From: Candidatus Obscuribacterales bacterium
GTDB taxonomy: Bacteria; Cyanobacteriota; Vampirovibrionia; Obscuribacterales; Obscuribacteraceae
Assembly: GCA_965228855.1 (NCBI GenBank)
Contig: CBDDIJ010000005.1
Location: 704,001 to 768,000, forward strand
Direction of reading: 5' to 3'
Length of the DNA: 64,000 bases
In this document: positions 28,771 through 60,811 of the stretch, in pieces
Numbering within the stretch: the first letter of the stretch is position 1
Layout of the letters: every line of letters starts with the position of its first letter
Notes under the pieces: generated by a model
The model's database searches: none
What the model was told of the DNA's origin: nothing
What the model saw: only the letters and a program-made list of their open reading frames with translations
Program-made: the position numbers and the translations under genes

Positions 28771-30174
28771 ATGCACGATCAAGACACAATAGCGGCAATC
28801 TCGACTCCACCTGGTACAGGCGCAATTGCGATAGTTCGATTATCAGGTCCAAAATCAATCTCGATACTCGCAAAAATATTTTCCAGCTCGCCTGAGACCT
28901 TCAAGCCACTCCAATGGGAATCTAGAAGCCATGAGGCTATCCATGGGTATATATGGAATCCCGATAACGTCGAATTAGTAGACGAAGTAGTCGCGATTCC
29001 ATACAAAGGACCAGTAACGTATACAGGAGAAGACATCGTAGAAATAAACTGCCACGGCAGTCCTCTGTTAGCCCGGGAAATTTTGGACCTGGCTATGAGA
29101 TCGGGAGCGAGACTTTCCCAACCCGGCGAATTCACGAAGAGAGCCTTTCTCGCGGGACGCATGGATCTCACGCAGGCAGAAGCGGTTCTCGATTTGATTC
29201 AGGCGCGCACGACTCGCCAGAGCCGAATGGCGGTCAATGTCTTGAAGGGTGGGCTGGGACATTCAATAAAAGAAATTCGTGGGCGGCTGATGGAACTTCT
29301 CAGCCGTTTAATCGCCGGTATCGACTTCCCTGAAGAAGTAGGCGAATTGCCGCTCGACGATATCGGTCCCATTGTGCGACAAGCGACAACAGACTTAGAG
29401 CGTTTGCGAAAAACCGCTCGCAGCGGCCGCTTCCTCCGCGATGGACTAAGGCTTTCCATAGTGGGCCGACCGAACGCCGGAAAGTCGAGTCTACTCAACC
29501 AGTTTCTCGCATTCGAACGTGCCATCGTTACGGAGATTCCCGGCACAACTCGAGATTCAATAGAGGAGCCATTCGACATTAATGGAATTCCGGTAATTCT
29601 CATAGACACGGCCGGCGTTCGAATTACGGATGACACCGTCGAAAAGATCGGCATCGAACGCACCGGTCGCGCAGTCGATGAAAGCGATCTCGTGCTCATG
29701 GTTTGCGACGTCACCCAGGGATGGGGCAAAGAAGAGCAAGAAGTTTTGAAATTACTGAACGGTCAGCCGTTTCTGTTCATTCTCAATAAGATCGATCAAG
29801 CCGATGGTGAGTCGAATTCCAGCGAAATGAAATTGGAAGTTGAGCGAAACGAAAGTTGCATCGACCAGGCGCGCATTTCAGCAAAGACTGGAGAAGGTGT
29901 TGAGGAGCTGAAAAACAAGATCGAACGCTTCGCAATTAAAGACAATACGTTTAACGAGGCGGGCGGCAGTCTAAATCAAAGACAGGACGAATTGTGCCTC
30001 CGCGCGCTGCAGTCGCTTGACGACCTCAAAGTCTCGATAGACAACCGCATGCCTGAAGATTGTCTAGCGACTGACCTGAAAACAGCCATTCACTGCCTCT
30101 CAGAGGCTTGCGGAGACGAGGTAACCGAGGAGCTCATCACGGAAGTCTTCAGCAGATTCTGCATAGGTAAATAG
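28771..30174 (+). CDS. mnmE: tRNA modification GTPase MnmE
   Basis: DTIAAISTPPG, GEFTKRAFL, GRPNAGKSS, PGTTRD, DTAG, C-terminal FCIGK. Confidence 0.97.
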   Translation: MHDQDTIAAISTPPGTGAIAIVRLSGPKSISILAKIFSSSPETFKPLQWESRSHEAIHGYIWNPDNVELVDEVVAIPYKGPVTYTGEDIVEINCHGSPLLAREILDLAMRSGARLSQPGEFTKRAFLAGRMDLTQAEAVLDLIQARTTRQSRMAVNVLKGGLGHSIKEIRGRLMELLSRLIAGIDFPEEVGELPLDDIGPIVRQATTDLERLRKTARSGRFLRDGLRLSIVGRPNAGKSSLLNQFLAFERAIVTEIPGTTRDSIEEPFDINGIPVILIDTAGVRITDDTVEKIGIERTGRAVDESDLVLMVCDVTQGWGKEEQEVLKLLNGQPFLFILNKIDQADGESNSSEMKLEVERNESCIDQARISAKTGEGVEELKNKIERFAIKDNTFNEAGGSLNQRQDELCLRALQSLDDLKVSIDNRMPEDCLATDLKTAIHCLSEACGDEVTEELITEVFSRFCIGK

Positions 30175-31199: not shown

Positions 31200-33047
31200 G
31201 TGAACGAGTTTCAAAAATCAGTAGACAAATTCATAGCTCCCGACCTGAAAGAGCGCTACCGCGATTTCAAATACGTCGGGCAGGGCGGGATGGGGCGCAT
31301 CGTCAGCGCGCACGACACGATGCTGGACAAACGTGTTGCAATAAAACTCTTGCCGGCCGTCAGTCACAGCGACACGGCTCTGGTTCGCTTTCACCAGGAA
31401 GCAAAGGCGATCAGCAAACTCAAACATTTGAACATAGTCACAGTTTTAGATTTCGGTTTTACATCGACAGAAGAACCGTATCTGGTGATGGATTACATCG
31501 ACGGAACACCGCTTGACACCGTCATCGAGGCTAATGAAACCATTCCGCTCAGAACAGCGATTCAGATAGCCCTTCAAATATGCGACGCACTGGAGCACGC
31601 TCATTTTAATGGCGTCATCCATCGCGATTTGAAGCCCAGCAACGTCATGCTCCTCAAAGATGAGCAGATTCGAATTCTGGATTTCGGTCTGGCCAAGTTG
31701 ATGGACGCAACGGACATCGACCACCGGCTAACCCGCAAAGGGCAAGCGATGGGAAGCCCGCTATTCATGAGTCCCGAACAGGTGCGCGGAGAAGACGCTG
31801 ATGAACGGGCTGACGTTTATGGACTTGGTATGCTGCTCCATAAAATGATCACTGGAAAAGTACCGCTGGAAAACGAAAACATAATCGTGATTCTCAGGTC
31901 ACGACTGGAAGAGCCGCCCCCGAACCTGCCACCAAATTCGGTGACTCCGGTTCTCACGGATGCGACGAACGAGATTTTGCAGAGAGCAATGGCTCCCGAT
32001 CCGGCAAATCGTTTCCAAAACATGAAGGAGTTCAAAGCCGCACTAGAGGATTTGAAAGACGTCGGAGAATTTGTCGAGGAAATTGAACTTAAGATTCCCC
32101 GAGAGAAATATAAACTGGGTAGGCACGGAAAACAGGCACTCCTTGTCGCTGTAATGGTCGCGCTATTTGGCGTAATTACCGGCATGGCGGTGATAATGAA
32201 AGGCGATCGCGACTTGAAAGCGATAAAGGAAGTTCAAAAACCAGCAGAGAAAATTGAAAAGAGACCAAAGGTTATTAAGCAGAAACCTAAGGACCAAATT
32301 CCTACTGGCTTTGAAATTGACAGTCAATCCTGGTGGAAAGCGCCTTTGAACCGCGACGAGGATTTTTACAGATTGCTCGGAAGCGGAGTAAAGAGGTTGA
32401 ATGTCTCCTACAATCCACGCCTTACAGCCAAAGGTATGGAAATAATTTCGGACCTCAACCTCGACTCACTGAGCCTTGAAGAAACAAGAATCGGGGACGA
32501 GTCTATCGATTACTTGAACAAGATGAATTTACAAACGCTAGATATTCGAAGCACAAGATTCTCAAATGCTGGTCTGGCTCGCCTTGCGCCCAGTAAACGC
32601 CTAGCGGCGTTAGACGTTGCATATATGAAACACTTTGACGATAAGACGCTTGCGCTGATTGTGAAAAAATTTCCAAATCTCAAGCGCCTGATCATCAGCA
32701 ACACTCTTGTCACTCCCAAAGGTCTAGCGACATTAAAAGCTTTAAGACTGACAAGAATATCGGCGTCCGGATTGAAGCTTACCGACAAGGATATGGATAT
32801 ATTTGCGATACTAAACCCTGAATCACTTGATCTGGAGGGAAACTTCATCACGAAGGAATGTATACCTGATATCAAGCGCATAACTAACCTGAAGTGGGTT
32901 GGTTTCGACTTCACGGCCGTGCCACCAGAAGCAGTGGCAGAGCTCAAGCGATGGAAACCGGATCTTGTTGTGTCAAATCGAAAACCAGATGACAAACAAG
33001 TCGACGAAATGACGGAAACTTTGTTCAACGCAGATGACCATATTTAA
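31200..33047 (+). CDS. Hanks-type Ser/Thr kinase with TM helix and C-terminal leucine-rich repeats
   Basis: GQGGMG, VAIK, HRDLKPSN, DFG, MSPE; TM ALLVAVMVALFGVITGMAVIM; LxxLxL repeats. Confidence 0.92.
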   Translation: MNEFQKSVDKFIAPDLKERYRDFKYVGQGGMGRIVSAHDTMLDKRVAIKLLPAVSHSDTALVRFHQEAKAISKLKHLNIVTVLDFGFTSTEEPYLVMDYIDGTPLDTVIEANETIPLRTAIQIALQICDALEHAHFNGVIHRDLKPSNVMLLKDEQIRILDFGLAKLMDATDIDHRLTRKGQAMGSPLFMSPEQVRGEDADERADVYGLGMLLHKMITGKVPLENENIIVILRSRLEEPPPNLPPNSVTPVLTDATNEILQRAMAPDPANRFQNMKEFKAALEDLKDVGEFVEEIELKIPREKYKLGRHGKQALLVAVMVALFGVITGMAVIMKGDRDLKAIKEVQKPAEKIEKRPKVIKQKPKDQIPTGFEIDSQSWWKAPLNRDEDFYRLLGSGVKRLNVSYNPRLTAKGMEIISDLNLDSLSLEETRIGDESIDYLNKMNLQTLDIRSTRFSNAGLARLAPSKRLAALDVAYMKHFDDKTLALIVKKFPNLKRLIISNTLVTPKGLATLKALRLTRISASGLKLTDKDMDIFAILNPESLDLEGNFITKECIPDIKRITNLKWVGFDFTAVPPEAVAELKRWKPDLVVSNRKPDDKQVDEMTETLFNADDHI

Positions 33048-43552: not shown

Positions 43553-45400
43553 GTGAACACGGAAGCGACATACAATAATCCTGATGAGATCTTTCCGAGC
43601 GATCTGAAAGAGCGATATCATGATGCGCGCTTGATCGGAAAGGGCGGTATGGGGCGCGTGTTCAAGGCCAATGATGTGCGACTTCAACGGGACGTCGCCA
43701 TCAAGTTACTGCCGGCGAGTCACGAACGAGAGAATGCCGTTATTCGATTTCAACAAGAGGCGAAGGCGGTTTCGAAGCTCAACAATCCGCACATAGTCAA
43801 GGTTCAAGATTTCGGCTTCACGGAGGTCGAGCTTGAGCCTTTTCTAGTAATGGAGTTTATCGACGGGGTTAATCTCGCCGATTTCTTGGAGAAGAACGGA
43901 ACGCTTTCGCTGCGACGCGCAATCGAAATTGGAATCGAAGTATGCGAAGGCCTTTCGCATGCTCACAAAAATGGCGTCTTGCACCGCGATCTAAAGCCGG
44001 GAAATATCATGATTGATGCGAACAACTGCGTTCGAATTCTCGATTTCGGTCTCGCGAAAATTCTGAGAAAATCACAAGATGATACGGAACAGGCGCTGAC
44101 GAAACCCGGTCGCTTGATGGGAAGTGTTTTGTTCATGAGTCCCGAGCAGTTTGAAGGCAAGGAAGCAAGCGAGCTATCGGAGATATATTCGCTTGGTCTG
44201 GTACTCTTCAACCTCGTAACAGGGGAGATTCCAAACCAGGGCGAGAATCTGATGGCGTTTATGCGAAAGCGCAGAGAGGAAGCACCACATGCGCTACCAG
44301 AAACAATTCTAGATCCTCTCAGGGTTAACCTTAACCTCGTTCTTCAAACTGCACTCGCGACAGATTCGGCCAATCGTTTTAGTTCCATAGATGATCTTCA
44401 AAACGCGCTCAGGCACTGCTTGAGCGAGGAGACAAAAGCGGTTGACGCTTCGCACACAGATGTTCCGTCCGTGACAAAAACGGAGCGCAAGACGACTCTA
44501 CCTCCGTGGGCTGTAGCGACCGCAATTGCATTAATTGCAGTTGGCAGTTTTGCTATGTACAGCGTCACTAAAACACCGAATGACAGCCACTCCCGTGAGC
44601 AGAACAAACAACCCGGCGAATTGAAAGATGGCGGATTGCCACCAGGTTTTCTCAGTGAGCGAGATGAGAATGTGGACTGGTGGACAGGCACGACAGTAAA
44701 AGACGCGGACCTGGAAAAGCTGATAGGAAGCGATGTTCGCAACCTGAGCTTGCAGGGTAATACGATAATCACGGATGCCGGCTTGCACCGTATTCGCAAC
44801 CTGAAATTAGTAGCTCTGAACTTGCGCGACACAAAAATAAGTGATGCCAGTATACAAGACATCGACAATTTCAAACTCACCGCTTTGAACATCCGCAGCT
44901 CGAAAATCACTGAAGAAGGGATTCTTCGAATGACAGCGAATCCCAGTATGAAAGCGTTGGACCTGAAATATCTCCCGATATCAGACAGCGGTCTTGCTCA
45001 TATAGTGAGCATCTTTCCGAATTTAGAGAGCCTAAACGTCGGTTTCACAGGTGTGAATAAGGACGGTCAGCACCTCGAAATCTTGAGGAAACTGAAGCAT
45101 CTGAAACGCTTTTTCGCGGAGCAGATAAACATCAGGGATGCCGATGTCGACACGCTCGTATCATTGAAAATTGAGTCGATGGAGCTGGCGGCAAACCCGA
45201 TCACTCGCAAATCGATTGAAAAATTGCTTGAGTTACCGCGCCTCGATTTTCTGTCACTGGCGGGCTGCAAAGGAATCAGTGCCGAAGACGTGGCGAAACT
45301 AAAAAACAGATTTCCGGATATTACTTTGACGGAACCGGTTCACAAGAAAACCGTTGTAAATGACGATGTCACTGAAATGTTTAAGCAGACCGACCTGTAG
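43553..45400 (+). CDS. Hanks-type Ser/Thr kinase with TM helix and leucine-rich repeats
   Basis: GKGGMG, VAIK, HRDLKPGN, DFG, MSPE; TM WAVATAIALIAVGSFAMY; LRRs. Confidence 0.92.
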   Translation: MNTEATYNNPDEIFPSDLKERYHDARLIGKGGMGRVFKANDVRLQRDVAIKLLPASHERENAVIRFQQEAKAVSKLNNPHIVKVQDFGFTEVELEPFLVMEFIDGVNLADFLEKNGTLSLRRAIEIGIEVCEGLSHAHKNGVLHRDLKPGNIMIDANNCVRILDFGLAKILRKSQDDTEQALTKPGRLMGSVLFMSPEQFEGKEASELSEIYSLGLVLFNLVTGEIPNQGENLMAFMRKRREEAPHALPETILDPLRVNLNLVLQTALATDSANRFSSIDDLQNALRHCLSEETKAVDASHTDVPSVTKTERKTTLPPWAVATAIALIAVGSFAMYSVTKTPNDSHSREQNKQPGELKDGGLPPGFLSERDENVDWWTGTTVKDADLEKLIGSDVRNLSLQGNTIITDAGLHRIRNLKLVALNLRDTKISDASIQDIDNFKLTALNIRSSKITEEGILRMTANPSMKALDLKYLPISDSGLAHIVSIFPNLESLNVGFTGVNKDGQHLEILRKLKHLKRFFAEQINIRDADVDTLVSLKIESMELAANPITRKSIEKLLELPRLDFLSLAGCKGISAEDVAKLKNRFPDITLTEPVHKKTVVNDDVTEMFKQTDL

Positions 45401-45542: not shown

Positions 45543-46856
45543 ATGGCAGGCGATTTACCGACCAGTACAAACAAAGAAACCGATGTCGCGCAGGCACAGC
45601 CACGAGGCGGCGGCAGCTTTGCAGATGAAATTTTGCGGGCGCCTGGTTCCGGTGATTCCAGACCAGCGGCGCCAGCACCGGCTGCCGACACCGCCGCAAA
45701 ACCGACGGACGCTAAACCGGCAGCACCCGCAGCAGTTACCGATACGGGCAGAGATGTCGTTTTAAAACTGAGCTACAACGACCCGAAGTTTGACGAGTCG
45801 ATCTGGAAAACCGTCAAATACAATGCAATCGAGATTTCAGATTTTCCCAAAGACGCACGTGTTCAGCACTGGGCAGACAAAGACGGCTACTTTTTCTATT
45901 TGACCGACGCCGCGGGCAAGATGATAGACAACAAGCTGCATCATTACCCGGGCAATGTCGCAAAGCTGATCATCAACGGAAACACTCAAGATTTGGTGAA
46001 AGAACGCCAAAAGGTTTCCGAAGCTATTGCCAGAAAAAATGACATCAACATCAAGGACGGCGTCCTGACTGTAGATGTGAAAGACGGCAAATTCGACGAG
46101 AAAGTGCATCGCGTCCGAACCATGGACACGATCAACCTGACCGGATTAGCTCCTGGAGCGAAGATTGCTCATGGAATGGATGGAAACGGTTTCTTCTTCG
46201 AAGTCGGCGATGGCAAAAAACACTATTATCCAACTAACGCTAAACAGCTCGCAGTCGACGGCAAGGTCACTATGGACCTGACCAAGACTCGCTATCAAGA
46301 CATCGAGTCATATTCGAACACGAGCTTCGGAGGCTTCAAAGACTACAGTCGTGGGCGGGATCCGATGACGAACGCTCAGCAGGTCATAAATTTCGCAGCC
46401 GGCATGGACAAGCAAGCCGGGCGGTCTCTGGACGTGCTCGACAAGGGACTTACCGAGGCGATTGCCTCGTCCGAGCATCATCCCTACTTCAAGTATTTGC
46501 TGGCAAACGTCAAACTGGCACAGGCGATGGGTGCAGTTAGAGAGCGAGTTCTCACGGGTCAGTCCATCAACCACCCGAGCGTTATAGATAAGCTCGACAA
46601 AGCAGATGAGCTGCTGGACCAGGTAATCAAAGAATCAGACGGACGCCTGCGCGTCATCGGCCGAGGCTTCCCGCGTCCCAACGCACCACTCATGCCGCTT
46701 GCGCCCTACGCGCCATATGACCCGCGTGACCCGAACGGTCTGTATTCCTTCTGGGGCGGGACCTATGACCAGGCTGGATTCATGAAGCCGGGCGTCAAAT
46801 TCATCAAAGGATTGGTGCAGAGCAACGTTCTCGCCTTACCGCCCGAAAGACCATAG
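45543..46856 (+). CDS. Hypothetical protein with tandem duplicated ~80-aa domain
   Basis: Disordered Ala/Pro-rich N-terminus; repeats at aa ~71-155 and ~172-250; AAGGA RBS. Confidence 0.75.
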   Translation: MAGDLPTSTNKETDVAQAQPRGGGSFADEILRAPGSGDSRPAAPAPAADTAAKPTDAKPAAPAAVTDTGRDVVLKLSYNDPKFDESIWKTVKYNAIEISDFPKDARVQHWADKDGYFFYLTDAAGKMIDNKLHHYPGNVAKLIINGNTQDLVKERQKVSEAIARKNDINIKDGVLTVDVKDGKFDEKVHRVRTMDTINLTGLAPGAKIAHGMDGNGFFFEVGDGKKHYYPTNAKQLAVDGKVTMDLTKTRYQDIESYSNTSFGGFKDYSRGRDPMTNAQQVINFAAGMDKQAGRSLDVLDKGLTEAIASSEHHPYFKYLLANVKLAQAMGAVRERVLTGQSINHPSVIDKLDKADELLDQVIKESDGRLRVIGRGFPRPNAPLMPLAPYAPYDPRDPNGLYSFWGGTYDQAGFMKPGVKFIKGLVQSNVLALPPERP

Positions 46857-49764: not shown

Positions 49765-50268
49765 ATGCACGGCGGCGGAAACACACAGTGGATGGACGAT
49801 GAGCTGCGGCTGGCGACGCTGCAGATCTTGCTCGACCAACGCCGGATGCAAGGCGAGGAGGCTGGTGCATCCGAAAAGATGATCGCCTACATTCTGGAGA
49901 TCCAACGCTGCCCGCGGTTTAAATTGAATATGGATTTTTTGATGCAAAACGGTTTCATTGAAAAGGGAAATCGTGTGCTTAAGATTACACCGGCTGGATA
50001 CGATTTCCTGCTTGAACGTCTGGGCGGGTTGAAGCCGGAGGCTAGCTCGTTTCCGGTACTTGCTGCAATATTGAAGAAACTGGAAGGTTTAACACTGGAG
50101 GAATTGCAAGCAGTTTTTCCAGATAAAACGGCGACGGATCTGGAGTTTTCACTCTGGTATCTGACGGAGAAGAAATATATCGAGGAGCGCGAACAAAAGT
50201 TCAAAGCTACTATGTCAGGCTATACCTTGGGAAAACGATTCGGCACCACATTTGATGGCACTGTCTAA
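49765..50268 (+). CDS. Hypothetical protein with two tandem winged-helix-like repeats
   Basis: FKLNMDFLMQNGFIE...LKITPAGYDFL and LEFSLWYLTEKKYIE...FKATMSGY. Confidence 0.6.
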   Translation: MHGGGNTQWMDDELRLATLQILLDQRRMQGEEAGASEKMIAYILEIQRCPRFKLNMDFLMQNGFIEKGNRVLKITPAGYDFLLERLGGLKPEASSFPVLAAILKKLEGLTLEELQAVFPDKTATDLEFSLWYLTEKKYIEEREQKFKATMSGYTLGKRFGTTFDGTV

Positions 50269-51377: not shown

Positions 51378-51498
51378 ACAGGGAAATTTGTCAAAAAATC
51401 CTATAAAAGGAGGCTGAAACCGTTTGCGCTGTTTCCAGCCGCATATAATTAACGAAGGAGCTAATTCAGCCAAGGTATATCCCTCGCGAAAGGTTTTC

Positions 51499-53226
51499 AT
51501 GGTCGACGAAGCAAAACAGGAAAGCAATTCCAATAGCGGCAGCAGCGCGACAGCAACACCGGATGGGGCGAATCTCGAAACCTACCTCGCAAAGCATGGC
51601 GCGATGGGTTGGCGAGAGTGCCTGGCCGAGATGCACGATGTTTGTTTTAGCCTGGAGAAACAGAACGTTGTTTACGGTGATTTGACCGTACGCTCTATCA
51701 CGGTTTCTGAAACCACCGCCAGTGGTATCACACTTCACTTACATAGCCACGCTCCAAACGCTTTAGAAAAAACCGAAAAAAGCGGCGCGATATCATTTCC
51801 AAACGAAGCATATTTCAGCCCCGAAAAATGTCTGTCAAAGTCGGTTGATCGACGCTCAGATGTTTACTCGCTAGGTTGCATCATGTACCACATGCTTACG
51901 GGTGCGCCGCCGTTTGTGCAGAGAGACCCGGAGAAATTGAAAGAGGCGCAAGCAATCGATTACGCCTTGCCGCCAGGGAGGAGATCACAAAGACAGCACA
52001 TTCCGGACGAAGTCGATGCTTTGATCAGTCGCTGTCTCGAGAAGGATCCGGCGAAACGGTTTAAAAATGCAAGTGAGTTGCGCGCAAACCTTGGCAATGC
52101 GCTGCAACTGGAAGAAGATCCGGATGACGCGATAAACAAAAGCGCGAAGTTTTCGGAATTTTTCCAGAAACGAAGAGCGGTCTTTCTTCGCGTAATCGCT
52201 CTTGTTGCAGTGACTGCCGTCTTAGGCTGGCTTGCGCTGGAAGTGACATCCAATCAGGATTTCGCGAAATCGCTCGAGCGCACATCTGCCCGCCATCGCA
52301 ATCGCTGGTTTCTAAATTTAGAACACGGCCAGATGTATCTTGCCCAAGCAGAATTCGAGAACGGCAAGATGGAGCCGGATACAGGCAAAGAGCCATTAGA
52401 GCTGAAAATGAAAGACGAGGACGTAATCCTGTTCTCCACGACAAAGCGCCAGACTGTCAAGGAAGCTGTAGAAGAGGCGATTCGACGACGCCTGATCCTG
52501 TTCAAAGTCAATCTTATCGATGCGGATCTCGCTGGTGCAGTTATTCCACATGCGAATCTGGACGAATGTTTCGCAATCAACGCAAAGTTTGATGGTGCTG
52601 TCATGACCAATGACTTGCTAAGGCAAGCAGATCTCACAAACGCAAGCATGAAAAACGTGAAATTGGACAGCGCCAATATCGAACGCGGAGTATTCAGGCA
52701 AGCCAATCTAGAGGGAGCGGACTTATCGGGATCTGTTCTAATCGATTGCGATTTCACAAATGCGAAACTGAAAGGCACAAATTTAAAAAACACCTATTTG
52801 CTCGACTCGACTTTTACCGGTGCCGACTGTTCAGGAGCCGCGTTCGATGGTTCTACAATGACCGAACAATGCGCAACACAAGCGAAACTCACACCGGAAC
52901 AGCGAAAATCAGTCAAAATCGTAGTCGGACCCAAAGCCGAGCATAAAGTCGTTCGACCGCTCGGCGTAGCGGAGCCCAAAGATCTGGAAGTTCAAGTCCA
53001 GACACCTTTCGCGCAGCGAAAGATGCATAATCCATTTGCACAACCGAAAGAAGGTTCGAGTTACGGGCCGAATGTCCCCGCTAATGAGCGAATCGGACTG
53101 GACATTAAAATCGATAAGAATGGCAACCCCATTCCTGTCGAAAACCCGCCGCCTCGCAAATCACCAGCTCAAAGGCAGTCTCCGGCGCTGACACCGGGGA
53201 CGGTGCCAGTCCCTCCGAGTAAATGA
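51499..53226 (+). CDS. Pseudokinase (C-lobe only) with TM helix and pentapeptide repeats
   Basis: YFSPE, RSDVYSLGCIMYHMLTG.PPF and LEKDP..RF retained; no Gly loop, VAIK or DFG; TM VIALVAVTAVLGWLAL; A(D/N)Lxx repeats; Pro-rich tail. Confidence 0.8.
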   Translation: MVDEAKQESNSNSGSSATATPDGANLETYLAKHGAMGWRECLAEMHDVCFSLEKQNVVYGDLTVRSITVSETTASGITLHLHSHAPNALEKTEKSGAISFPNEAYFSPEKCLSKSVDRRSDVYSLGCIMYHMLTGAPPFVQRDPEKLKEAQAIDYALPPGRRSQRQHIPDEVDALISRCLEKDPAKRFKNASELRANLGNALQLEEDPDDAINKSAKFSEFFQKRRAVFLRVIALVAVTAVLGWLALEVTSNQDFAKSLERTSARHRNRWFLNLEHGQMYLAQAEFENGKMEPDTGKEPLELKMKDEDVILFSTTKRQTVKEAVEEAIRRRLILFKVNLIDADLAGAVIPHANLDECFAINAKFDGAVMTNDLLRQADLTNASMKNVKLDSANIERGVFRQANLEGADLSGSVLIDCDFTNAKLKGTNLKNTYLLDSTFTGADCSGAAFDGSTMTEQCATQAKLTPEQRKSVKIVVGPKAEHKVVRPLGVAEPKDLEVQVQTPFAQRKMHNPFAQPKEGSSYGPNVPANERIGLDIKIDKNGNPIPVENPPPRKSPAQRQSPALTPGTVPVPPSK

Positions 53227-55145
53227 GTTCAGATGCGAACAGGAAAACTCTGACTGCCGAAGACTCGTTTCCCCACGAGCGCTATGATGCGCTTGAGAGA
53301 CTCGGAAGCGGTGCTTACGGAGCCGTCTATAGATGCCGCGATAAACTTTTAAAACGCACTGTCTCTATCAAGACGCTCTTCAACCTCACGGAAAGCCAGG
53401 TAATCGACTTTCAAAAAGAGGCGCGCGCTCTCAGCGCCTTACAGCATCCCGGAATAGTTTCGATTCTGGACTTTGGGATCAGCGAAAAGGGATTTCCATA
53501 TCTGGTGATGGAATTTATCGAGGGTCTCTCTCTTGAGCAACATCTGGACGAGCACGGAACTTTGCCGACGAGTGTTGCGCTGGAGCTGTTTACACAAATC
53601 GCGGAATCTCTAGCCTATGCTCACAGCAAGGGTGTCTATCACAGAGATCTAAAACCCGCAAACATATTACTATCGGAGAATAAACTCAACGAGCTACATG
53701 CGAAGCTGATTGATTTTGGAATGTCGGCAACTGCATTAAGCGGTGAGACAACAATCGATTCACAAGGCAAAACGCTTGTCGGCACACCGGCTTACATGAG
53801 TCCCGACCAGATAAGTGGAGATGCGTTCGATGCCGCGTCGGAAACCTACACTCTCTGCTGCGTGCTGTTTGAAGCCATAATCGGCGGTCCACCGTTCACT
53901 GCGGTGTCGGCACTGGAACTCCTGGCGCTGCATGCCAATGAACCTGCGCCGTCCATGCTTGAGTTCGAAACAGGCTCGGTCGTGTTCAGAAGACTCGATG
54001 AGGTTATTCGGCAAAAGGGTCTTGCTAAGAGAAAGTCACAACGATTCAGAACGATGTCAGAGCTAGCGTCAGCGCTAGGTGCTCTGATCGAAACAGCAAG
54101 AGACCTCGAGACACATGGTATCACCAGCGGTTCTACACATGAAGAGCTGAACGAATCAGCGCCGACGACAGAGGCGGATCTGAAAGCAGTCAACGCCAGA
54201 TACAGCATGATATTCGTGGCGTGCCTGGTGGCAATGGTTTCAGTAATTCCGATAGTTGCTTACACGATGCTAAACCGTGGCGAGTTTGTCAAACATCCTC
54301 GACCTGCGAAAGCTGCGGAAACCAATCCTATCGACATGAGCAATATCGATTTTGTCGTTGGAGGTTTAGATTCCGACGGCATTTCGATGAAGATGGAATC
54401 GTGCAAAGTGATCAATAACTTCGACATCAAGAAGTTTAAGGAGCTTACAAAGAACAAGGTGCTCCGAAAAATTTCTTTCACCAACGTTCACTTGACGCCG
54501 GAAGATGTGAGAGCGGTGGCACCATTGAAGCCGACATCTTTCAACATGAATCAATGCGCGTATAACGACCGAGTCTTCAAGGAAATTGCAGCTATACCGT
54601 CCATCACTTCGCTCCAAGTCGCCTCCGGCGTGGTGACACTTCCCTCGATGCGCTTTATTGCATCAATGCCCAATTTGAACTATCTGGATCTGAACGGCTC
54701 GAACGTTGATGACAAGCTACTGCAAACGCTGACAACCTCGCAGCTCAAGCAACTTGATGTGCATAAATGCGAGGCAGTGACAGGAAAGGGACTGAACAGA
54801 GGAATGGAGCAACTCACATATTTCAGAGCCAGCAAACTTAGCGTGTCCGGAAAAGATCTCGCATTTCTGAAAGGGCTGCCAAATCTCAAGATTCTAGAAC
54901 TGTTTCCGATTGACCTCACCGATGAGGACGCCGAACAGATCAAAAATCCCGAGCTTCACTCAGTAAGAATCGATAGTGCGTATCTTACGATTAAAGGAGT
55001 GAAACTGTTTGCCTCACTTCCGAACATCAAATATATCGAGGTCGGCAGAACACCCACTATAAATGAAAGTTCCATCCGGGCTCTTGCTCACGAATTTCCA
55101 GGTGTCAAGATTCAACTCTCCGCCAAACCGCTGAAATCAATTTGA
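53223..55145 (+). CDS. Hanks-type Ser/Thr kinase with TM helix and leucine-rich repeats
   Basis: GSGAYG, VSIK, HRDLKPAN, DFG, GTPAYMSPD; TM MIFVACLVAMVSVIPIVAY; LRRs; ATGA overlap with the upstream gene. Confidence 0.9.
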   Translation: MSSDANRKTLTAEDSFPHERYDALERLGSGAYGAVYRCRDKLLKRTVSIKTLFNLTESQVIDFQKEARALSALQHPGIVSILDFGISEKGFPYLVMEFIEGLSLEQHLDEHGTLPTSVALELFTQIAESLAYAHSKGVYHRDLKPANILLSENKLNELHAKLIDFGMSATALSGETTIDSQGKTLVGTPAYMSPDQISGDAFDAASETYTLCCVLFEAIIGGPPFTAVSALELLALHANEPAPSMLEFETGSVVFRRLDEVIRQKGLAKRKSQRFRTMSELASALGALIETARDLETHGITSGSTHEELNESAPTTEADLKAVNARYSMIFVACLVAMVSVIPIVAYTMLNRGEFVKHPRPAKAAETNPIDMSNIDFVVGGLDSDGISMKMESCKVINNFDIKKFKELTKNKVLRKISFTNVHLTPEDVRAVAPLKPTSFNMNQCAYNDRVFKEIAAIPSITSLQVASGVVTLPSMRFIASMPNLNYLDLNGSNVDDKLLQTLTTSQLKQLDVHKCEAVTGKGLNRGMEQLTYFRASKLSVSGKDLAFLKGLPNLKILELFPIDLTDEDAEQIKNPELHSVRIDSAYLTIKGVKLFASLPNIKYIEVGRTPTINESSIRALAHEFPGVKIQLSAKPLKSI

Positions 55146-55386
55146 AACAACGGCAGCGACTGCGACTAGCTTCTTTACAAAAGGGTCCAGCACTGTGGCT
55201 ATAACACGGGCGTCAGGCACAACAATTAAGCGAACAAGCGCACGATATGTTTGAATGGTTTCACACATGGAATAAATAAATCAGTTCAGCGGAACAGCTT
55301 GAGACTTGCGTGGGGCAGTATCGAGCGTTCCGAGAGCCCGACCTCAACGGGAACCTTTTAAAAACCAAAGTATAAAGGAGCGATCG

Positions 55387-58300
55387 ATGAATACAAATCG
55401 ATTCCGTTTGAGCCGTCCGGAAGAAAGTAAAAATTTGAATGACAAGAATGTGCTGATTGGCGACGCATTTGCATTCTTAGATGAGAATGCGCTGAAGTCC
55501 AGCAGCATGAGATGGCTGTTTAAGCTCATGGGCAAGAAGCCTAGCGGCAAGCCTCAAATCGTTTCGCTCGCCGGTCCGGAAAGCGTTGAGCTTTTCGGTT
55601 ATACGATTGAGCCGCTAAGCGTGAAGCCTTTGCTCTTGCAATGCATCGTCAGTGACAAGTCTTTGTACCGAAGCGAAAAAGACACAATCAATCTTCTGGT
55701 ACTGAAACCGCTTGCACCAAATTCCTCGACCGAAGTAATCGTGAATTCATCCGGAAATCCGTTTTCGAAACATACCGTCGAACTCGGTCAAAACGGTGAG
55801 GGCATGCTGACTTTAACAGACCTGCCCGTCGGAGAATACACAGTTCAGTTCGAGACGATTGCCCAGGTTGCCTGTGAATTCATCGTAGCAGAATACCGCC
55901 TGGCTCCCCTTGTTTCTTCGTTGGTCGAGAGTAGAGTTCTGGACAACTCGAAACTCAATGTGACGTTGCAGGTGGAATCATTCGGCGTACCCATCAATGA
56001 GCAGGTCCGGCTCAGTCTGATGGATCGGACCATGCTTATCGCAATGGAATCGAGAACCGCTGTCGACGGAAAAGTGGAGGCGACGTTCGAGCTGACCGGC
56101 GAAGGACCGCATTCGATATATGTTCAAATTCCGAGCGATCCGTCGAAGACAGCGACCGTGCCGCTGCGCGGAAGTCGAGAATCAGAGCGCAAAACGACAC
56201 TGTTCTCACCGCTGGGAACTGAGGTAGTCGGCTCGCTCTTGCCCATTGGTAATTCCGAAGCGGTAAGAGGGATATACTTCGCGGAAGGAGCAATCAAGAC
56301 TTCACCAATATCGCTCGCACAGGTGGATTCGGACCAGATTCATTTAAACATCAACTGCGCCGCTTCATTGCTCAAAGTCGTCGTCGTAGATCCGACTTTT
56401 CCACGCGCGAACGAAGACGCGGTTGATGTGGAACAGGTTGGTCATCCTTCTGGAGACGCCGTCTACAAAACCGCCGAAGCTATGTTCAAATCCGGCAACT
56501 TCCTTGGAGCTGCGGAAACATTCTGGCAACGACGCGCGGAGCTCGCAAATCCCCATCCGTATTTCGCGTATTACACGGCATGCAGCTATGCACGCGCAGG
56601 GCAACGAGATGAAGCGGTACAGGCGCTCAGACAGTCCTTCATGGATGGTTGGCGAGAGATGCAGCATTTAGAAGAAGATGAGGATCTATCCTCACTTAGA
56701 GGCTTTCCGCCATTTGAACACTTGCTGACCGGTGGTCTTCGAGAGTTTACATTCGAAGATCTCGAAGCAGGTCGAAAAATTTCACTGGAAGCATTCGCGC
56801 CCTCCTCGCTGGTTCTCCTAGGAGCCTACATAGACGGCAAAGCCTGGGAGGGTTGGGCAACGGTCGTGGTACCGAGCACGGTATCAACAGAAATTACTTT
56901 ACCGGAGCTTTGTCCGCCCGGCAAAGACATCACGATTGAATTCTCAGCAGGCAAAGCAACCTCCATATATGCAATCGTCAAAGACGCGCGTCTCATCAGC
57001 GCTGATACCCCCGAGTTGAAATTGGCTGGTGCATTGAAAACGTTTATCGAACTGGAAGGCAAGGAGAAAAAGGTAGGAGAGGTCAAAACCAGCCTGAGAC
57101 AGAAATATCAAGAATCTGCTCCCCCGCGCTACGCGCTCATGGCGAGAGCTGCGATGGGAGGAATGTCGACCGGATCATGGGGAGCATTGCCTCTGGCAGC
57201 ACCAGGTTCTGCCTATGGCGGTGGGGTTCCAGATGCTGTCGGCACATCGAGCGCAGAGAACGAAGGGGCGCTGCGCTTTCGCAGTGAAGCGCGATGGGAT
57301 ACTCCTATTCAAGAGCGCGGCGAACAGACTATCTCGGCACGGTTCGGCATGGCGCAATCGCCGGACATTGCGGCGCATCAAATGCAAGATTCGAATATGG
57401 ACATGGTCTTCGATCACGTGATGACTGCAGACGTTGAAGGTGAAAGCGGTTCCGCAGTTTGCCAAACGACGAATTCAAGCAAAGCGAAAACAGAGGACAA
57501 AACCAAATCAATCACGATGCTGCAAGACGATCCCGAAGTGGTGTTTGCAGGCTTTGTGAAAGTAGATGGAGGGATAGGTCATTTGACCATCAAGCTGCCG
57601 GATACATTCGCCGATTATATTGTTGAGTGTTTCGCAGTCGAGGGTCTGGACTGGGCATCTAAAGAAACCAGTTTTCGGGCCGCCAAGGATCCGTTTGTAA
57701 AACTGACCACGCCTGTCTTCACCCGCAAAGAGGAACCAGCTCAAGCATTCGTACACGTCGGATCTGCAAAGAAGGTGAAGCTGAAAGTACTTTTGAACGG
57801 TGAACAGATCGAATTATTTGAGGATGAAAACAAACCCTTCACGGGAGAGATTTCTGGAGCGCCAACCGCATTCTCGTTTTCAGCACTTCCAGGAGCATAC
57901 GAAGCGATCCTTGAAGATGCTTCCGGCGAAATAGTTGCAAATGACATGAAGAATGTCGATGAGCCTGGCAAATTGAAACGCCTGGTTCGCACGATTCAGA
58001 TTTTGCAAAGTGGAGAAAGCGTTGCACTGGCAGACGATTCAAAACGCCGCGCTCTGACGCTGATGCCGGGGATTGAAACTTCCTTCAAAGCCCTGGTAGA
58101 AGCAACCGCAGATTATGCACACTGTTGCTGCGAGCAGACGGCTGCAAAAATCCTATCCGGATGTGCTATGTATATATTCTCCGGCGGCGATGACAATCGC
58201 AGGAAAACCGCTGAATCCGTCATTCTCGCAGGCATCCGTAGAGAGCAAAAAATGTGGCTCAAAGGTCGCGGCTTCAAGGCCTACCCTGAACGATTCAACG

Positions 58301-59319
58301 AACCGGACCAACACTACGGAAAGAAAGCGGCTCGTTATCTCTGGAACTTGCAGCATCTCAAAGACGCGGATAACGGCACGATGTCCAAAGATTTGAAAGA
58401 GGCAATTGAAAGCGGTTTAGAAATGGCCGCGGATACAACCAGGGCGTATGGAATCAACTGGCCGCCATCTGAATTCACTTCGTGCGAAGACGCCTATGGC
58501 GCAATCACTTTCGACAAAGGCGATGTCGCAGTCCGGGCGCTGAAGTACGTCGAAGAGACGCTCAAAAAAGGTCAAGTTCCAATTGAAAACAATCCGTGGT
58601 TTGGCTACAACGTTTTTAAACGAGCGGAATCGTCATATGCTGCCGCGGTATTGCTCAACAGCCGAAACTCCGCCCATTTAAAAACTGCTCTAGGGCTGGC
58701 TAATGAGGTAATCAGTCAGTTAAACGATGAGGGGCGATTATATTCAACTTACGATTCTGTAGCTGCGATTGCCCTGATGAAGGAGCTGGATAAATGCGGT
58801 ATCACTGGCGGTGACGCACAAAACGCGAAATTCGAATTCAATGGAGAAGTCCGCTCACGAGCGGAAGCGTTGAGTACGCCCGAGAAGCTCACCACACTCA
58901 AAGTTTTACAAGGCGTCGCCACTGTCATGGTTGACACGATGGTCGAAGAAGACTGGACGAAATTTGCATCGGATGTTCCTCTTCGGGTGAGCTTAGAAAA
59001 GGGAGGACAACACGGTCGCAAATACAAAGCTGGAGACTCGTTCGACCTGATTGTCGCACTGGAAGAAGGCTATAAGATGGGAGACCTGCTCTGGGTTGCA
59101 CTGCCCGACGCAGTTTCAAGAGTGGTGGGCGGCGGACAGGTGAAACTGTTTTCGATCGACTTTGCAGGTCAATCGGAGGTCAGAATTTCACTAGCCGCCA
59201 CTGGCGTCACAGAAGTCGCCGGTAACAAAACCCAGAGCATCGCAGTATGCGTCCGAAATATGTTCATCGAGGAACGCGTTGGAAACCCCGGTCTAATTCA
59301 GGTTACTGTGACTAGATAA
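55387..59319 (+). CDS. Alpha-2-macroglobulin-like thioester protein with inserted TPR module
   Basis: SDKSLYR MG-type motif; DPEVVF...IKLPDTFADYIVECFAV; YAHCCCEQT (CxEQ thioester); AAGGAG RBS before ATG 55387. Confidence 0.75.
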   Translation: MNTNRFRLSRPEESKNLNDKNVLIGDAFAFLDENALKSSSMRWLFKLMGKKPSGKPQIVSLAGPESVELFGYTIEPLSVKPLLLQCIVSDKSLYRSEKDTINLLVLKPLAPNSSTEVIVNSSGNPFSKHTVELGQNGEGMLTLTDLPVGEYTVQFETIAQVACEFIVAEYRLAPLVSSLVESRVLDNSKLNVTLQVESFGVPINEQVRLSLMDRTMLIAMESRTAVDGKVEATFELTGEGPHSIYVQIPSDPSKTATVPLRGSRESERKTTLFSPLGTEVVGSLLPIGNSEAVRGIYFAEGAIKTSPISLAQVDSDQIHLNINCAASLLKVVVVDPTFPRANEDAVDVEQVGHPSGDAVYKTAEAMFKSGNFLGAAETFWQRRAELANPHPYFAYYTACSYARAGQRDEAVQALRQSFMDGWREMQHLEEDEDLSSLRGFPPFEHLLTGGLREFTFEDLEAGRKISLEAFAPSSLVLLGAYIDGKAWEGWATVVVPSTVSTEITLPELCPPGKDITIEFSAGKATSIYAIVKDARLISADTPELKLAGALKTFIELEGKEKKVGEVKTSLRQKYQESAPPRYALMARAAMGGMSTGSWGALPLAAPGSAYGGGVPDAVGTSSAENEGALRFRSEARWDTPIQERGEQTISARFGMAQSPDIAAHQMQDSNMDMVFDHVMTADVEGESGSAVCQTTNSSKAKTEDKTKSITMLQDDPEVVFAGFVKVDGGIGHLTIKLPDTFADYIVECFAVEGLDWASKETSFRAAKDPFVKLTTPVFTRKEEPAQAFVHVGSAKKVKLKVLLNGEQIELFEDENKPFTGEISGAPTAFSFSALPGAYEAILEDASGEIVANDMKNVDEPGKLKRLVRTIQILQSGESVALADDSKRRALTLMPGIETSFKALVEATADYAHCCCEQTAAKILSGCAMYIFSGGDDNRRKTAESVILAGIRREQKMWLKGRGFKAYPERFNEPDQHYGKKAARYLWNLQHLKDADNGTMSKDLKEAIESGLEMAADTTRAYGINWPPSEFTSCEDAYGAITFDKGDVAVRALKYVEETLKKGQVPIENNPWFGYNVFKRAESSYAAAVLLNSRNSAHLKTALGLANEVISQLNDEGRLYSTYDSVAAIALMKELDKCGITGGDAQNAKFEFNGEVRSRAEALSTPEKLTTLKVLQGVATVMVDTMVEEDWTKFASDVPLRVSLEKGGQHGRKYKAGDSFDLIVALEEGYKMGDLLWVALPDAVSRVVGGGQVKLFSIDFAGQSEVRISLAATGVTEVAGNKTQSIAVCVRNMFIEERVGNPGLIQVTVTR

Positions 59320-59383: not shown

Positions 59384-60811
59384 TCAGGCTTTCGGAGCGA
59401 CTGCCAGAACGAGTTGGAACTCGACCTTGTCCGAGTTGACCGCCGGAGTCGGCAGGTCCGCGAGGCGTAGTTCGATGCCTTTCAATTCGATTTTGTCTTC
59501 TTGCGGAGTTGAGGACATATTCCAGGAGACTTTGTTACCTGGCGTGATTTCGCACTTCACATTGATTGTGCGACTGTCACTAGCCTTACGGTCAACAAAG
59601 TAACCGAGAATGGTGTATTGGACGGCTTCGATGTACTGGCGAAGAACCGCAGGGCTTGCGACTTTTCCAATCACGTCGTGGTCGGTAGTCACTTCGACAT
59701 TCTCGATCTTGGCGCAGCTATCCGGAAGCTCGACTTTTGGCAATTCGGTCAGCATAGCTCCAATTCCGGCAGTCGCAGCGACTTCCGGTTGATACCATTC
59801 GATTGAGATGGTGCCGCCCGCCGGCGTTGCGACTTTGACTTCAGAGCCGGTCATCAATGCCTTGCGCATCTTCAACCAGTCCGGTGTTGCAAGGCTGAGA
59901 AGAAATGAGTCTTCGACGACTTGAGCGTTGCTCTCGTCTTGCTCCGGGAAGAACAGTACCGAGCAACCGCAAACTTTCGAGCCGTCGCTACCAGGAGGCG
60001 TGATCGCCGATGGTCCATTCTCCATGGTGGCTTGCCAGACGAGCAGAGCGTTGGCATCCGGGTCCAGTTCGCCGGACACTACCAGCGGTGCCTCTTCCGG
60101 AATCTGTTGAAGTAGTTCGTTCAGACCTTCTTCAAGACCGTTCGGACACTTGATACTGAGTGTGGTGCCGGCCAGTTGAACGCGCACGCCAGGGATGGCA
60201 AACTGCGGAACTTTCGCCAGAATGCTCTGCTCCATAGCCGCTTTCATGTCTTCATTGATGCAGGAATTTCTGCTCCGATCGACCCATGGCGGGCACGGGA
60301 AATGACTGAATGTATAGCCAAGCAAAGCCAGAACGCGGGTGAGACCGAAGCGTCTTGCAATCTCCAACTCATCTTCGGTAAGCAGCACACAACTGAGAAC
60401 GCTGTTTGGCTCTTCCATACCTGCAATTCCGAGCGGTCTCAAATATGCCATCGCTCGAAACTTCGAATCGATGAATCCGGACTCACCAAATTCGGTGACA
60501 TCGCCTTCCGTTACGAAACTGCCTTGTTCGGCATACTGCCTTACTGTGAGAAACAGACCCAACGGATCCATCGGATATTCATGAATCTCTTCGCCGGGAT
60601 TTTGTCTGATCAAAATCGCCAACTCTTTTTGACCCAGACGATTTAGGCCCTCACTCACATAAGACCAGCAAGAGAATGAATTAGCTCCTTGCTGCATATC
60701 GTGCAAATTCACGATCGCGTACAGCTCGTCCGGTACGATCTCGAATCGCACTGGTGGAGCAGGTTGCTGCTGCCCCAACTGCAAAACATTCTCTTCTTGT
60801 GACATCATCAA
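59384..60811 (-). CDS. SARA/endofin C-terminal domain (DUF3480-like) protein
   Basis: WSYVSEGL..LGQKEL.ILI, RVLALLG....FPCP, ANALLVW, KVCGCS.LF and VVEDS motifs; AGGGAG RBS. Confidence 0.7.
   Translation of the reverse strand: MMMSQEENVLQLGQQQPAPPVRFEIVPDELYAIVNLHDMQQGANSFSCWSYVSEGLNRLGQKELAILIRQNPGEEIHEYPMDPLGLFLTVRQYAEQGSFVTEGDVTEFGESGFIDSKFRAMAYLRPLGIAGMEEPNSVLSCVLLTEDELEIARRFGLTRVLALLGYTFSHFPCPPWVDRSRNSCINEDMKAAMEQSILAKVPQFAIPGVRVQLAGTTLSIKCPNGLEEGLNELLQQIPEEAPLVVSGELDPDANALLVWQATMENGPSAITPPGSDGSKVCGCSVLFFPEQDESNAQVVEDSFLLSLATPDWLKMRKALMTGSEVKVATPAGGTISIEWYQPEVAATAGIGAMLTELPKVELPDSCAKIENVEVTTDHDVIGKVASPAVLRQYIEAVQYTILGYFVDRKASDSRTINVKCEITPGNKVSWNMSSTPQEDKIELKGIELRLADLPTPAVNSDKVEFQLVLAVAPKA

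Follow-up and report, generated by a model that had tools for sequence, protein, structure and literature searches.

A leaderless bacterial alpha-2-macroglobulin family whose baits can carry pieces of host proteins, and its possible role as an intracellular protease trap

Introduction

The described prokaryotic alpha-2-macroglobulins (A2Ms) guard the cell envelope (PMC4498604, PMC5764988, PMC8416519). A2Ms fire upon cleavage of a bait region and then bind the protease through a thioester (PMC4498604, PMC5764988). We analyzed a 64,000-nucleotide (nt) stretch of a Candidatus Obscuribacterales genome (assembly GCA_965228855.1, contig CBDDIJ010000005.1, positions 704,001 to 768,000, forward strand; hereafter the window), in which a gene at 55387..59319 on the plus strand encodes a leaderless A2M-like protein of 1310 amino acids (aa). 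This protein is a member of the A2M/thioester protein (TEP) superfamily that lies outside both the type I and the type II bacterial definitions. Its bait carries a peptide copied from a conserved part of a core protein of the host. In other phyla the N-terminal domains of host PilB proteins have been captured repeatedly into the same bait slot.

Type I A2Ms (ECAM/YfhM and SaA2M; 5a42, 4u48) share with the window protein the macroglobulin-like (MG) ring, bait, CUB domain, thioester domain (TED) and C-terminal MG domain in this order, the CxEQ motif in register, a Tyr at -4 and an MF/MY motif. They differ in having a signal peptide or lipoprotein anchor and ~1650 aa, whereas members of the leaderless family have ~1100-1350 aa and are 11-12% identical to them, and in having ten MG domains, two of them extra at the N-terminus; the model of a full-length relative of the window protein (P0102) aligns from ECAM residue ~370 on. 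The type I motif reads YGCLEQ and that of the leaderless family HxCCEQ, pbpC is absent from the tested neighbors of the leaderless family, and a bait copied from host cytoplasmic proteins is a further difference. The monomeric TEPs (TEP1 of Anopheles, human A2ML1, CD109) and C3/C4 are similar in length and layout; these animal TEPs and complement proteins are secreted, whereas the window protein is bacterial and leaderless and has a shorter TED. A2ML1 inhibits as a monomer via covalent binding (PMC9156758). The type II protein MagD of Pseudomonas shares the prokaryotic A2M fold with a bait, but is described as lacking CxEQ, periplasmic and part of a six-gene operon (PMC5764988), whereas the window gene encodes CxEQ and stands alone. 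Archaeal homologs keep CxEQ, like the window protein, and typically have predicted signal peptides (PMC8416519), which it lacks. No leaderless bacterial A2M family and no host-copied baits were found in a literature search that covered few subscription papers; leaderless archaeal cases may exist among those tabulated in PMC8416519.

A2M fold and domain order

An AlphaFold model of aa 111-1310 had a mean predicted confidence (pLDDT) of 84.7, with disorder only at aa 590-710. Foldseek ranked ECAM 5a42 first (E 1e-28), in agreement with the earlier note, which had proposed an A2M-like fold with MG domains from the sequence alone and a Foldseek comparison with A2M and C3 as a check. With VIA, TEP1 was the best match (Z 17.0; root-mean-square deviation (rmsd) 10.3; 617 residues aligned), and TEP1, A2ML1 and native A2M all scored Z 16-17. 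A family profile built from 50 relatives (49 picked mainly among those without the tetratricopeptide repeat (TPR) insert listed below) matched human A2M at E 6e-15 and ECAM at E 1e-14; a single-sequence phmmer search of the Protein Data Bank (PDB) with the window protein gave no A2M match. The P0102 model (pLDDT 88.6, structured N-terminus) matched the same superfamily, and matches in the ESM Atlas to classical A2M clusters at <=0.88 were taken as a lead only. The models and profile thus place the MG-bait-CUB-TED-MG domain order and fold of the superfamily in the window protein, with the following features.

55375..55380 (+): Shine-Dalgarno-like AAGGAG, 6 nt ahead of the ATG, a start shared by close relatives
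55387..59319 (+): leaderless A2M/TEP-fold protein gene, 1310 aa (open reading frame (ORF) call, fold, motif)
55387..55626 (+): conserved N-terminal domain in place of a signal peptide, aa 1-80 (family consensus, hydropathy, P0102 model)
55627..56391 (+): MG beta-sandwich domains, aa 81-335 (profile alignment, model)
56392..56739 (+): optional TPR module, aa 336-451, inserted into the loop that joins two MG strands (TPR_END_plus, model helices)
56740..57111 (+): MG strands and helix leading to the bait, aa 452-575 (model; invariant KDxR)
57112..57531 (+): disordered bait, aa ~576-715 (pLDDT <50 at aa 590-710)
57292..57321 (+): RWDTPIQERG, aa 636-645, matching aa 729-738 of a host zinc-finger/Roadblock protein at all ten positions
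57388..57414 (+): DSNMDMVFD, weak likeness to the repeated host motif DDxxxDxIF (6.2 bits, shuffle p 0.005, below the 15-bit cut-off)
57532..58074 (+): MG and CUB-like strands after the bait, aa 716-896, with LPDT (Pfam A2M, ECAM alignment)
58075..58809 (+): helical TED, aa ~897-1141, shorter than the C3/C4 TED (VIA, profile alignment)
58114..58140 (+): thioester motif Y910-A-H912-C913-C914-C915-E916-Q917-T (invariance, ECAM register)
58969..59316 (+): C-terminal MG domain (model)

The counterpart of aa 1-80 is predicted to be folded in P0102 (pLDDT ~90 from residue 11). In the profile alignment the start of the MG stretch at aa 81-335 corresponds to MG2-MG3 of human A2M (7voo residues 97-247), the post-bait stretch, whose LPDT lies at 57595-57606, to ECAM 941-1208, and RLYST in the TED to GGFSS of A2M. 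Pfam A2M (PF00207) matched aa 730-800 slightly below the cut-off (E 1e-3), and no bMG10 Pfam match was found in the protein. The TED superposed on C4Adg (1hzf) with VIA Z 13.3, rmsd 4.0 and 215 aligned residues. The genome carries a single copy of the family; the closest named locus, 94% identical, is labeled Candidatus Obscuribacterales.

Thioester motif and shielding residues

The motif is in register with ECAM YPYGCLEQT, C914-C-E-Q917 falling on CLEQ in the family profile, and a thioester bond between C914 and Q917 is predicted. Y910, C914, E916, Q917 and T918 are invariant in 121 sequences. Of the 319 relatives with 1000 aa or more, 310 keep CxEQ, 307 the Tyr at -4 and 309 a C-terminal NM[FY], the last represented here by R-N-M1292-F1293 at 59254-59265 (+) in the C-terminal MG domain. 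The thioester pocket of Salmonella A2M comprises Y1175, Y1177, M1625 and Y1626 (PMC4498604), and Y910, H912, M1292 and F1293 would be their counterparts by motif and position: Y910 is invariant, H912 stands for Y1177 and M1292-F1293 are conserved. The two models favor different states. The three consecutive Cys that the earlier note had emphasized fared less well than the motif itself. The CxEQ of YAHCCCEQT coincides with the ECAM thioester, but position 913 varies across the family (A, L, C, K and others), which rules out the three-Cys run as a defining trait; HCCCEQ, present in 36 of the 319, is a local lineage trait. A Ktedonobacteria clade has canonical YPFGC[IV]EQ with the same leaderless N-terminus.

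N-terminus and cellular location

The best 15-aa hydropathy within the first 75 aa was 1.11 for the window protein, against 2.12, 2.70 and 2.51 for the three classical A2Ms that this genome also encodes (bMG10-type, 1670-2181 aa, hydrophobic N-termini), which served as positive controls for hydropathy. A value of 2.0, exceeded by all three of these, was reached by 1/319 relatives, and a heuristic pattern scan for a lipobox or Tat motif found 0/319. The signal peptide or lipoprotein anchor of type I A2Ms is therefore not seen by hydropathy, lipobox or Tat heuristics, as the earlier note had already read from the sequence. Export from an upstream start, which it had named as a possible refutation, finds little room: the stop-to-stop frame has 1338 aa, and the sole upstream candidate, TTG 55306, would add 27 hydrophilic aa. 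The classical A2Ms are located as follows (two with CxEQ, one without).

G000:C3:3433444-3439989: classical A2M
G000:C2:2050787-2055799: classical A2M
G000:C3:3286487-3292540: classical A2M

N-terminal fusions among 211 full-length relatives are all of cytoplasmic types (zinc ribbon 18/211, FHA 6/211, PilB-N, the PilB/GspE N-terminal domain, 1/211), and ankyrin and Ser/Thr kinase fusions also occur among relatives. Because of these fusions and of baits apparently copied from cytoplasmic host proteins, a cytoplasmic location is judged likely, as had been proposed.

A host peptide in the bait of the window protein

The disordered bait separates the halves of the bait-bearing MG domain, in line with the disordered segment that the earlier note had placed at a bait position, and the FPE(V)-type motif at its end is the one that follows the bait of human A2M (it aligns with A2M FPETW). 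It is the fastest-evolving part of the protein (identity 85, 49, 38 and 31% in four relatives). A short-peptide search of the bait against the six-frame ORFs of its own genome returned a single outlier at 39.7 bits, the 10-mer RWDTPIQERG, whereas 20 shuffles reached at most 31.2; an exact 10-mer match arose in 2/5000 shuffles. phmmer with the whole bait against the own proteome gave no match, and the non-bait parts of the protein have no 9-mer in common with that proteome. The pattern W[DEG]xP[IVM]QE is restricted to two ORFs in the genome, the window A2M and the zinc-finger/Roadblock protein. Copy and host original differ in 5/10 codons through five base differences, all synonymous. This suggests that the peptide has been under selection and is not a recent copy. 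Conservation of the 10-mer also exceeds that of the bait around it.

The host protein (G000:C3:2473474-2478081; L112:10474-15081) has 1535 aa and follows a sigma-70 region-4 gene; a DUF4388 gene lies nearby. It consists of a zf-HC2/anti-sigma-like N-terminus, a W/G/P-rich disordered stretch of ~1300 aa in which conserved motifs recur, and a Roadblock/LC7 C-terminus that is 99-100% identical across the genus. The gene is core, being present in 46/47 genomes of the family and 49/201 of the class. Conserved islands stand out in the disordered region (PLTLAESIR, SIEAEQMETG, WDxPIQ and DDxxxDxIF; 0.6-0.8 against a median of 0.30, from 16 ortholog regions, 15 usable). The protein looks like a polarity or signaling hub, apparently undescribed; the polarity part presumes a link of Roadblock proteins to MglB. 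Other Obscuribacterales baits bear the same islands in different combinations, and matrices of the host motifs passed (15 bits) in 6/13 Obscuribacterales-labeled baits, one labeled bait of <40 aa left out, versus 0/57 others, a proportion that overstates independence for reasons given below.

Captured host domains in other lineages

Bait length ranges from 70 to 344 aa across the family, and most baits are simply disordered. With profiles built from host genes only, PilB-N was found in the bait of 32/211 relatives and FHA in that of 7/211; 32 of the 33 PilB-N copies are in the bait and none among the 211 proteins is in the TPR slot. Five PilB baits were compared with the MshEN proteins of their five genomes. 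Three were closest to the ATPase of their own genome (Thiotrichaceae 73%, Desulfobacteraceae 49.5%, Gemmatales 58%) and at most 33% identical to ATPases of other phyla. In a 28-row IQ-TREE tree the baits join host PilBs in three starred clades, grouping with the PilB of their own lineage, on longer branches, and a single bait clade was rejected (AU test, p 0.022). The FimV C-terminal domain was found above cut-off in 3 baits, and the FHA bait of locus L060 resembles the N-terminal part of FHA-T2SSE (TadA/CpaF-type) ATPases. In P0142, where PilB-N is N-terminal, the bait still contains the PilB acidic linker, and P0118 has a cyclic di-GMP (c-di-GMP) motif near cut-off (35.8 vs 38 bits). Baits were thus copied from host proteins independently in several lineages, with L049, L045 and L060 as exceptions, among the 7 genomes and the Obscuribacterales set whose own proteomes were compared.

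The bait of P0196 holds the PilB N1 and N2 domains. P0118, P0154, P0213, P0223, P0229, P0236, P0239 and P0241 combine PilB-N baits with C-terminal extensions of 127-245 aa, that of P0154 giving a T2SSE match at aa 1417-1522. In a single case, P0238 (Desulfobacterales), the bait holds IDIPTFLRR, which we take to resemble the FtsZ tail.

Distribution

Of 8000 candidates scored, 128 proteins (90% clustering) belong to the family, and its C-terminal half gave 352 clusters at 50% identity; 134 matching stretches were found in GTDB genomes, of which 79 loci were kept. Hosts include Obscuribacterales, Myxococcota, Acidobacteriota (Blastocatellia), Thiotrichales, Desulfobacteraceae, Planctomycetota, Xenobia, Longimicrobiales, KSB1 and the large Ktedonobacteria clade, with Minicystis rosea, Archangium lansingense and Ktedonosporobacter rubrisoli as cultured hosts. 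Distribution is patchy: 7/201 genomes of the window's class carry the family, all of 7.5-9.6 Mb. Two or three family loci occur in Thiomargarita and in one Obscuribacterales bin (L062, L069, L072; L038/L050; L055/L071), some of which may be fragments of one gene. P0048, P0059, P0065, P0112, P0149, P0237 and P0245 have N-terminal extensions without a family match, those of the first three presumably resembling ribbon-helix-helix domains.

Interpretation

We regard it as an even bet that a leaderless A2M with a host-copied bait is a cytoplasmic, decoy-baited covalent trap for proteases that cut the corresponding host protein. C914 and Q917 would form a thioester shielded by Y910/H912 and M1292/F1293; a protease recognizing the host target (the zinc-finger/Roadblock protein here; PilB, FimV or FHA-TadA ATPase elsewhere) would cut the decoy in the bait; the conformational change of the A2M would expose the thioester; and the thioester would acylate a lysine of the protease, so that the protease is removed and the real target spared. 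A foreign attacker is the most likely one, encoded by a phage or delivered by a competitor or predator; this is the least supported step, and the patchy trap beside a core target favors it. Somewhat short of even is the chance that the principle extends across many phyla, as an intracellular, complement-like trap that turns a programmable bait of the cell's own pilus and polarity pieces (PilB-N, FimV-C, FHA-TadA, an FtsZ-like tail and Roadblock-hub short motifs) against foreign proteases. Plant NLR integrated domains, PBS1/RPS5 and NLRP1/CARD8 likewise place a cleavable or host-mimicking segment in a defense protein. Such tripwires and decoys signal onward or kill the cell, whereas the leaderless A2M would itself bind the attacker covalently. 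The activation loops of CBASS CD-NTases are also cleavable segments in a defense protein of a different fold, and phage prohead proteases trip CBASS by cutting such an exposed loop (PMC12991175); the phage proteins Tip and Aqs1 inhibit PilB (PMC12035536).

A number of observations weigh against the decoy trap. These known PilB inhibitors are binders, not proteases, and the conserved short motifs might serve for binding instead of cleavage. Native forms rank first among matches of the window-protein model and activated forms among those of P0102; the models therefore give no picture of the native state. The baits had been inspected before the motif patterns were drawn up, the baits of the window protein and L001 hardly differ and kin are not independent, and 7/13 Obscuribacterales baits pass no host motif. 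The L049 bait is just 30% like its own PilB; that of L045 (Thiomargarita) is 46% identical to the PilB of a family member versus 38% to the fragments that its own assembly (2.3 Mb) contains; the L060 FHA bait has no preference for its own genome (58%, against 60, 54 and 54% for others); and 172/211 baits carry neither PilB-N nor FHA. The check for defense-island enrichment of homologs that the earlier note had proposed gave no signal, and the anti-phage role raised there stays a candidate: PADLOC gave 0 matches for the window protein (P0001) and 4 relatives, no defense family was found among 101 adjacent ORFs of 63/79 loci (Pfam, E 1e-12; a set without close duplicates or ORFs >900 aa, in which some picks from GC-rich genomes probably have the wrong frame), and 70 pattern matches in viral contigs yielded 0 confirmed relatives.

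The copied pieces might instead be address tags or sensors that dock the protein at host partners, such as the cell pole or pilus base, or link it to signaling by c-di-GMP or phospho-threonine, which we think unlikely; in this case the trigger would be a change driven by binding, or unspecific cutting of the disordered sequence around the copied pieces. The copied units are indeed binding modules (MshEN/PilB-N, FHA, the FimV C-terminus), FHA and PilB-N also occur outside the bait at the N-terminus, and the near-threshold c-di-GMP motif of P0118 would fit. Against this, the bait is where nearly all PilB-N copies are found, the TPR slot having none, the slot is filled by different host proteins in different lineages, bait branches are longer than those of the host originals, and P0142 retains the acidic linker in its bait even with PilB-N at the N-terminus. 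Quite unlikely, in our estimate, is a sink or timer for a host regulatory protease, for instance the cutter of the zinc-finger/Roadblock protein or one involved in pilus-ATPase turnover. The copied gene is zf-HC2/anti-sigma-like and follows a sigma-70 region-4 gene, a MerR-type gene lies upstream in some loci (9/79, below), and neither PADLOC nor the neighbor scan found a defense context; the trap is nevertheless patchy and its target core, and patchiness, cross-phylum spread and bait turnover fit conflict better than housekeeping.

A classical broad-spectrum A2M that is released by lysis or non-classical export and acts outside the cell is improbable. Described prokaryotic A2Ms are periplasmic or have signal peptides (PMC4498604, PMC5764988, PMC8416519) and most baits here are simply disordered; but the fusions and bait copies all come from cytoplasmic proteins, and the genome already has three leader-bearing A2Ms. 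Highly improbable is a metal or redox site at the Cys cluster in a protein that has no thioester chemistry and acts as a scaffold: in the first 121 relatives the His at -2 and the Cys at the x position show >=90% conservation, and 9/319 lack CxEQ, as this would suggest, whereas ~97% retain Glu, Gln, Tyr(-4) and the C-terminal NM[FY], and the Ktedonobacteria clade combines the canonical motif with the same leaderless N-terminus.

If the decoy trap is real, thioester trapping moves inside the cell and is joined to the integrated-decoy idea of plant and animal immunity. The baits would then form a readable catalog of attacked host proteins and would indicate a class of proteases, so far undescribed, that cut pilus and polarity proteins. 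Each bait would name the protected protein, and the covalent adduct at the thioester would preserve the attacker, like a pull-down built into the cell. An A2M of this kind, leaderless and with an exchangeable bait, would be usable as an intracellular protease-capture tool.

TPR insert and neighboring genes

The NCBIfam model TPR_END_plus matches aa 394-447 above cut-off (TPR strings at 56569-56703), and the nearest solved structure to the TPR is a Chlamydomonas photosystem II factor (9is4, VIA Z 12.9); the own genome has no close TPR paralog (best E 0.029). In relatives without a TPR the slot usually has 5-7 residues. The insertion of the module within the MG region, as first noticed in the earlier note, is upheld, whereas its suggested role in selecting targets is not supported: the TPR is optional (116/211 full-length relatives, with 8 changes on a 107-row FastTree tree) and diverges at about the rate of the body (P0003 vs window: TPR 69% identical, body 72-82%, bait 49%), the bait being the variable, host-matched part.

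The A2M gene is stand-alone, its neighbors being kinases and a SARA_C-like gene, and promoter and terminator scans scored at or below chance. The lack of a pbpC neighbor, to which the earlier note had drawn attention, holds: no transglycosylase/transpeptidase was found among the 101 adjacent ORFs at E 1e-12. It is weak evidence here, because the three classical A2Ms of the genome have no recognizable pbpC beside them either (from the N-termini of their neighbors). A shared operon with the kinases on its flank or with the SARA_C-like gene was rejected, since in L002 the A2M gene has the opposite orientation to them and only close kin show the association. In 9/79 loci, the window locus not among them, a MerR-type gene lies directly upstream, overlapping the A2M start by 4 nt in 8.

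L043:3755-4378: MerR-type neighbor
L044, L048, L049, L054, L066, L068, L073, L076: MerR-type neighbors

PADLOC on 22 window proteins returned generic kinase matches and one weak LeoA match (28771-30174 (+), 467 aa, E 9e-9). Ser/Thr kinases lie at 31200-33047, 43553-45400, 51424-53226 and 53223-55145, one with pentapeptide repeats and one with a weak LRR match. The gene at 45543-46856 (+) encodes a 437-aa protein without a family match, and that at 49765-50268 (+) a 167-aa tandem winged-helix protein, Sso10a-like below cut-off. In Parabeggiatoa a VIT-vWA (inter-alpha-trypsin-inhibitor-like) gene follows the family member (L040:3334-5013). The SARA_C-like gene at 59384-60811 (-) encodes 475 aa (Pfam SARA_C, E 5e-9, above cut-off) and stands beside the A2M gene in the window and in 6 close loci; the domain is named after a eukaryotic endosomal adaptor.

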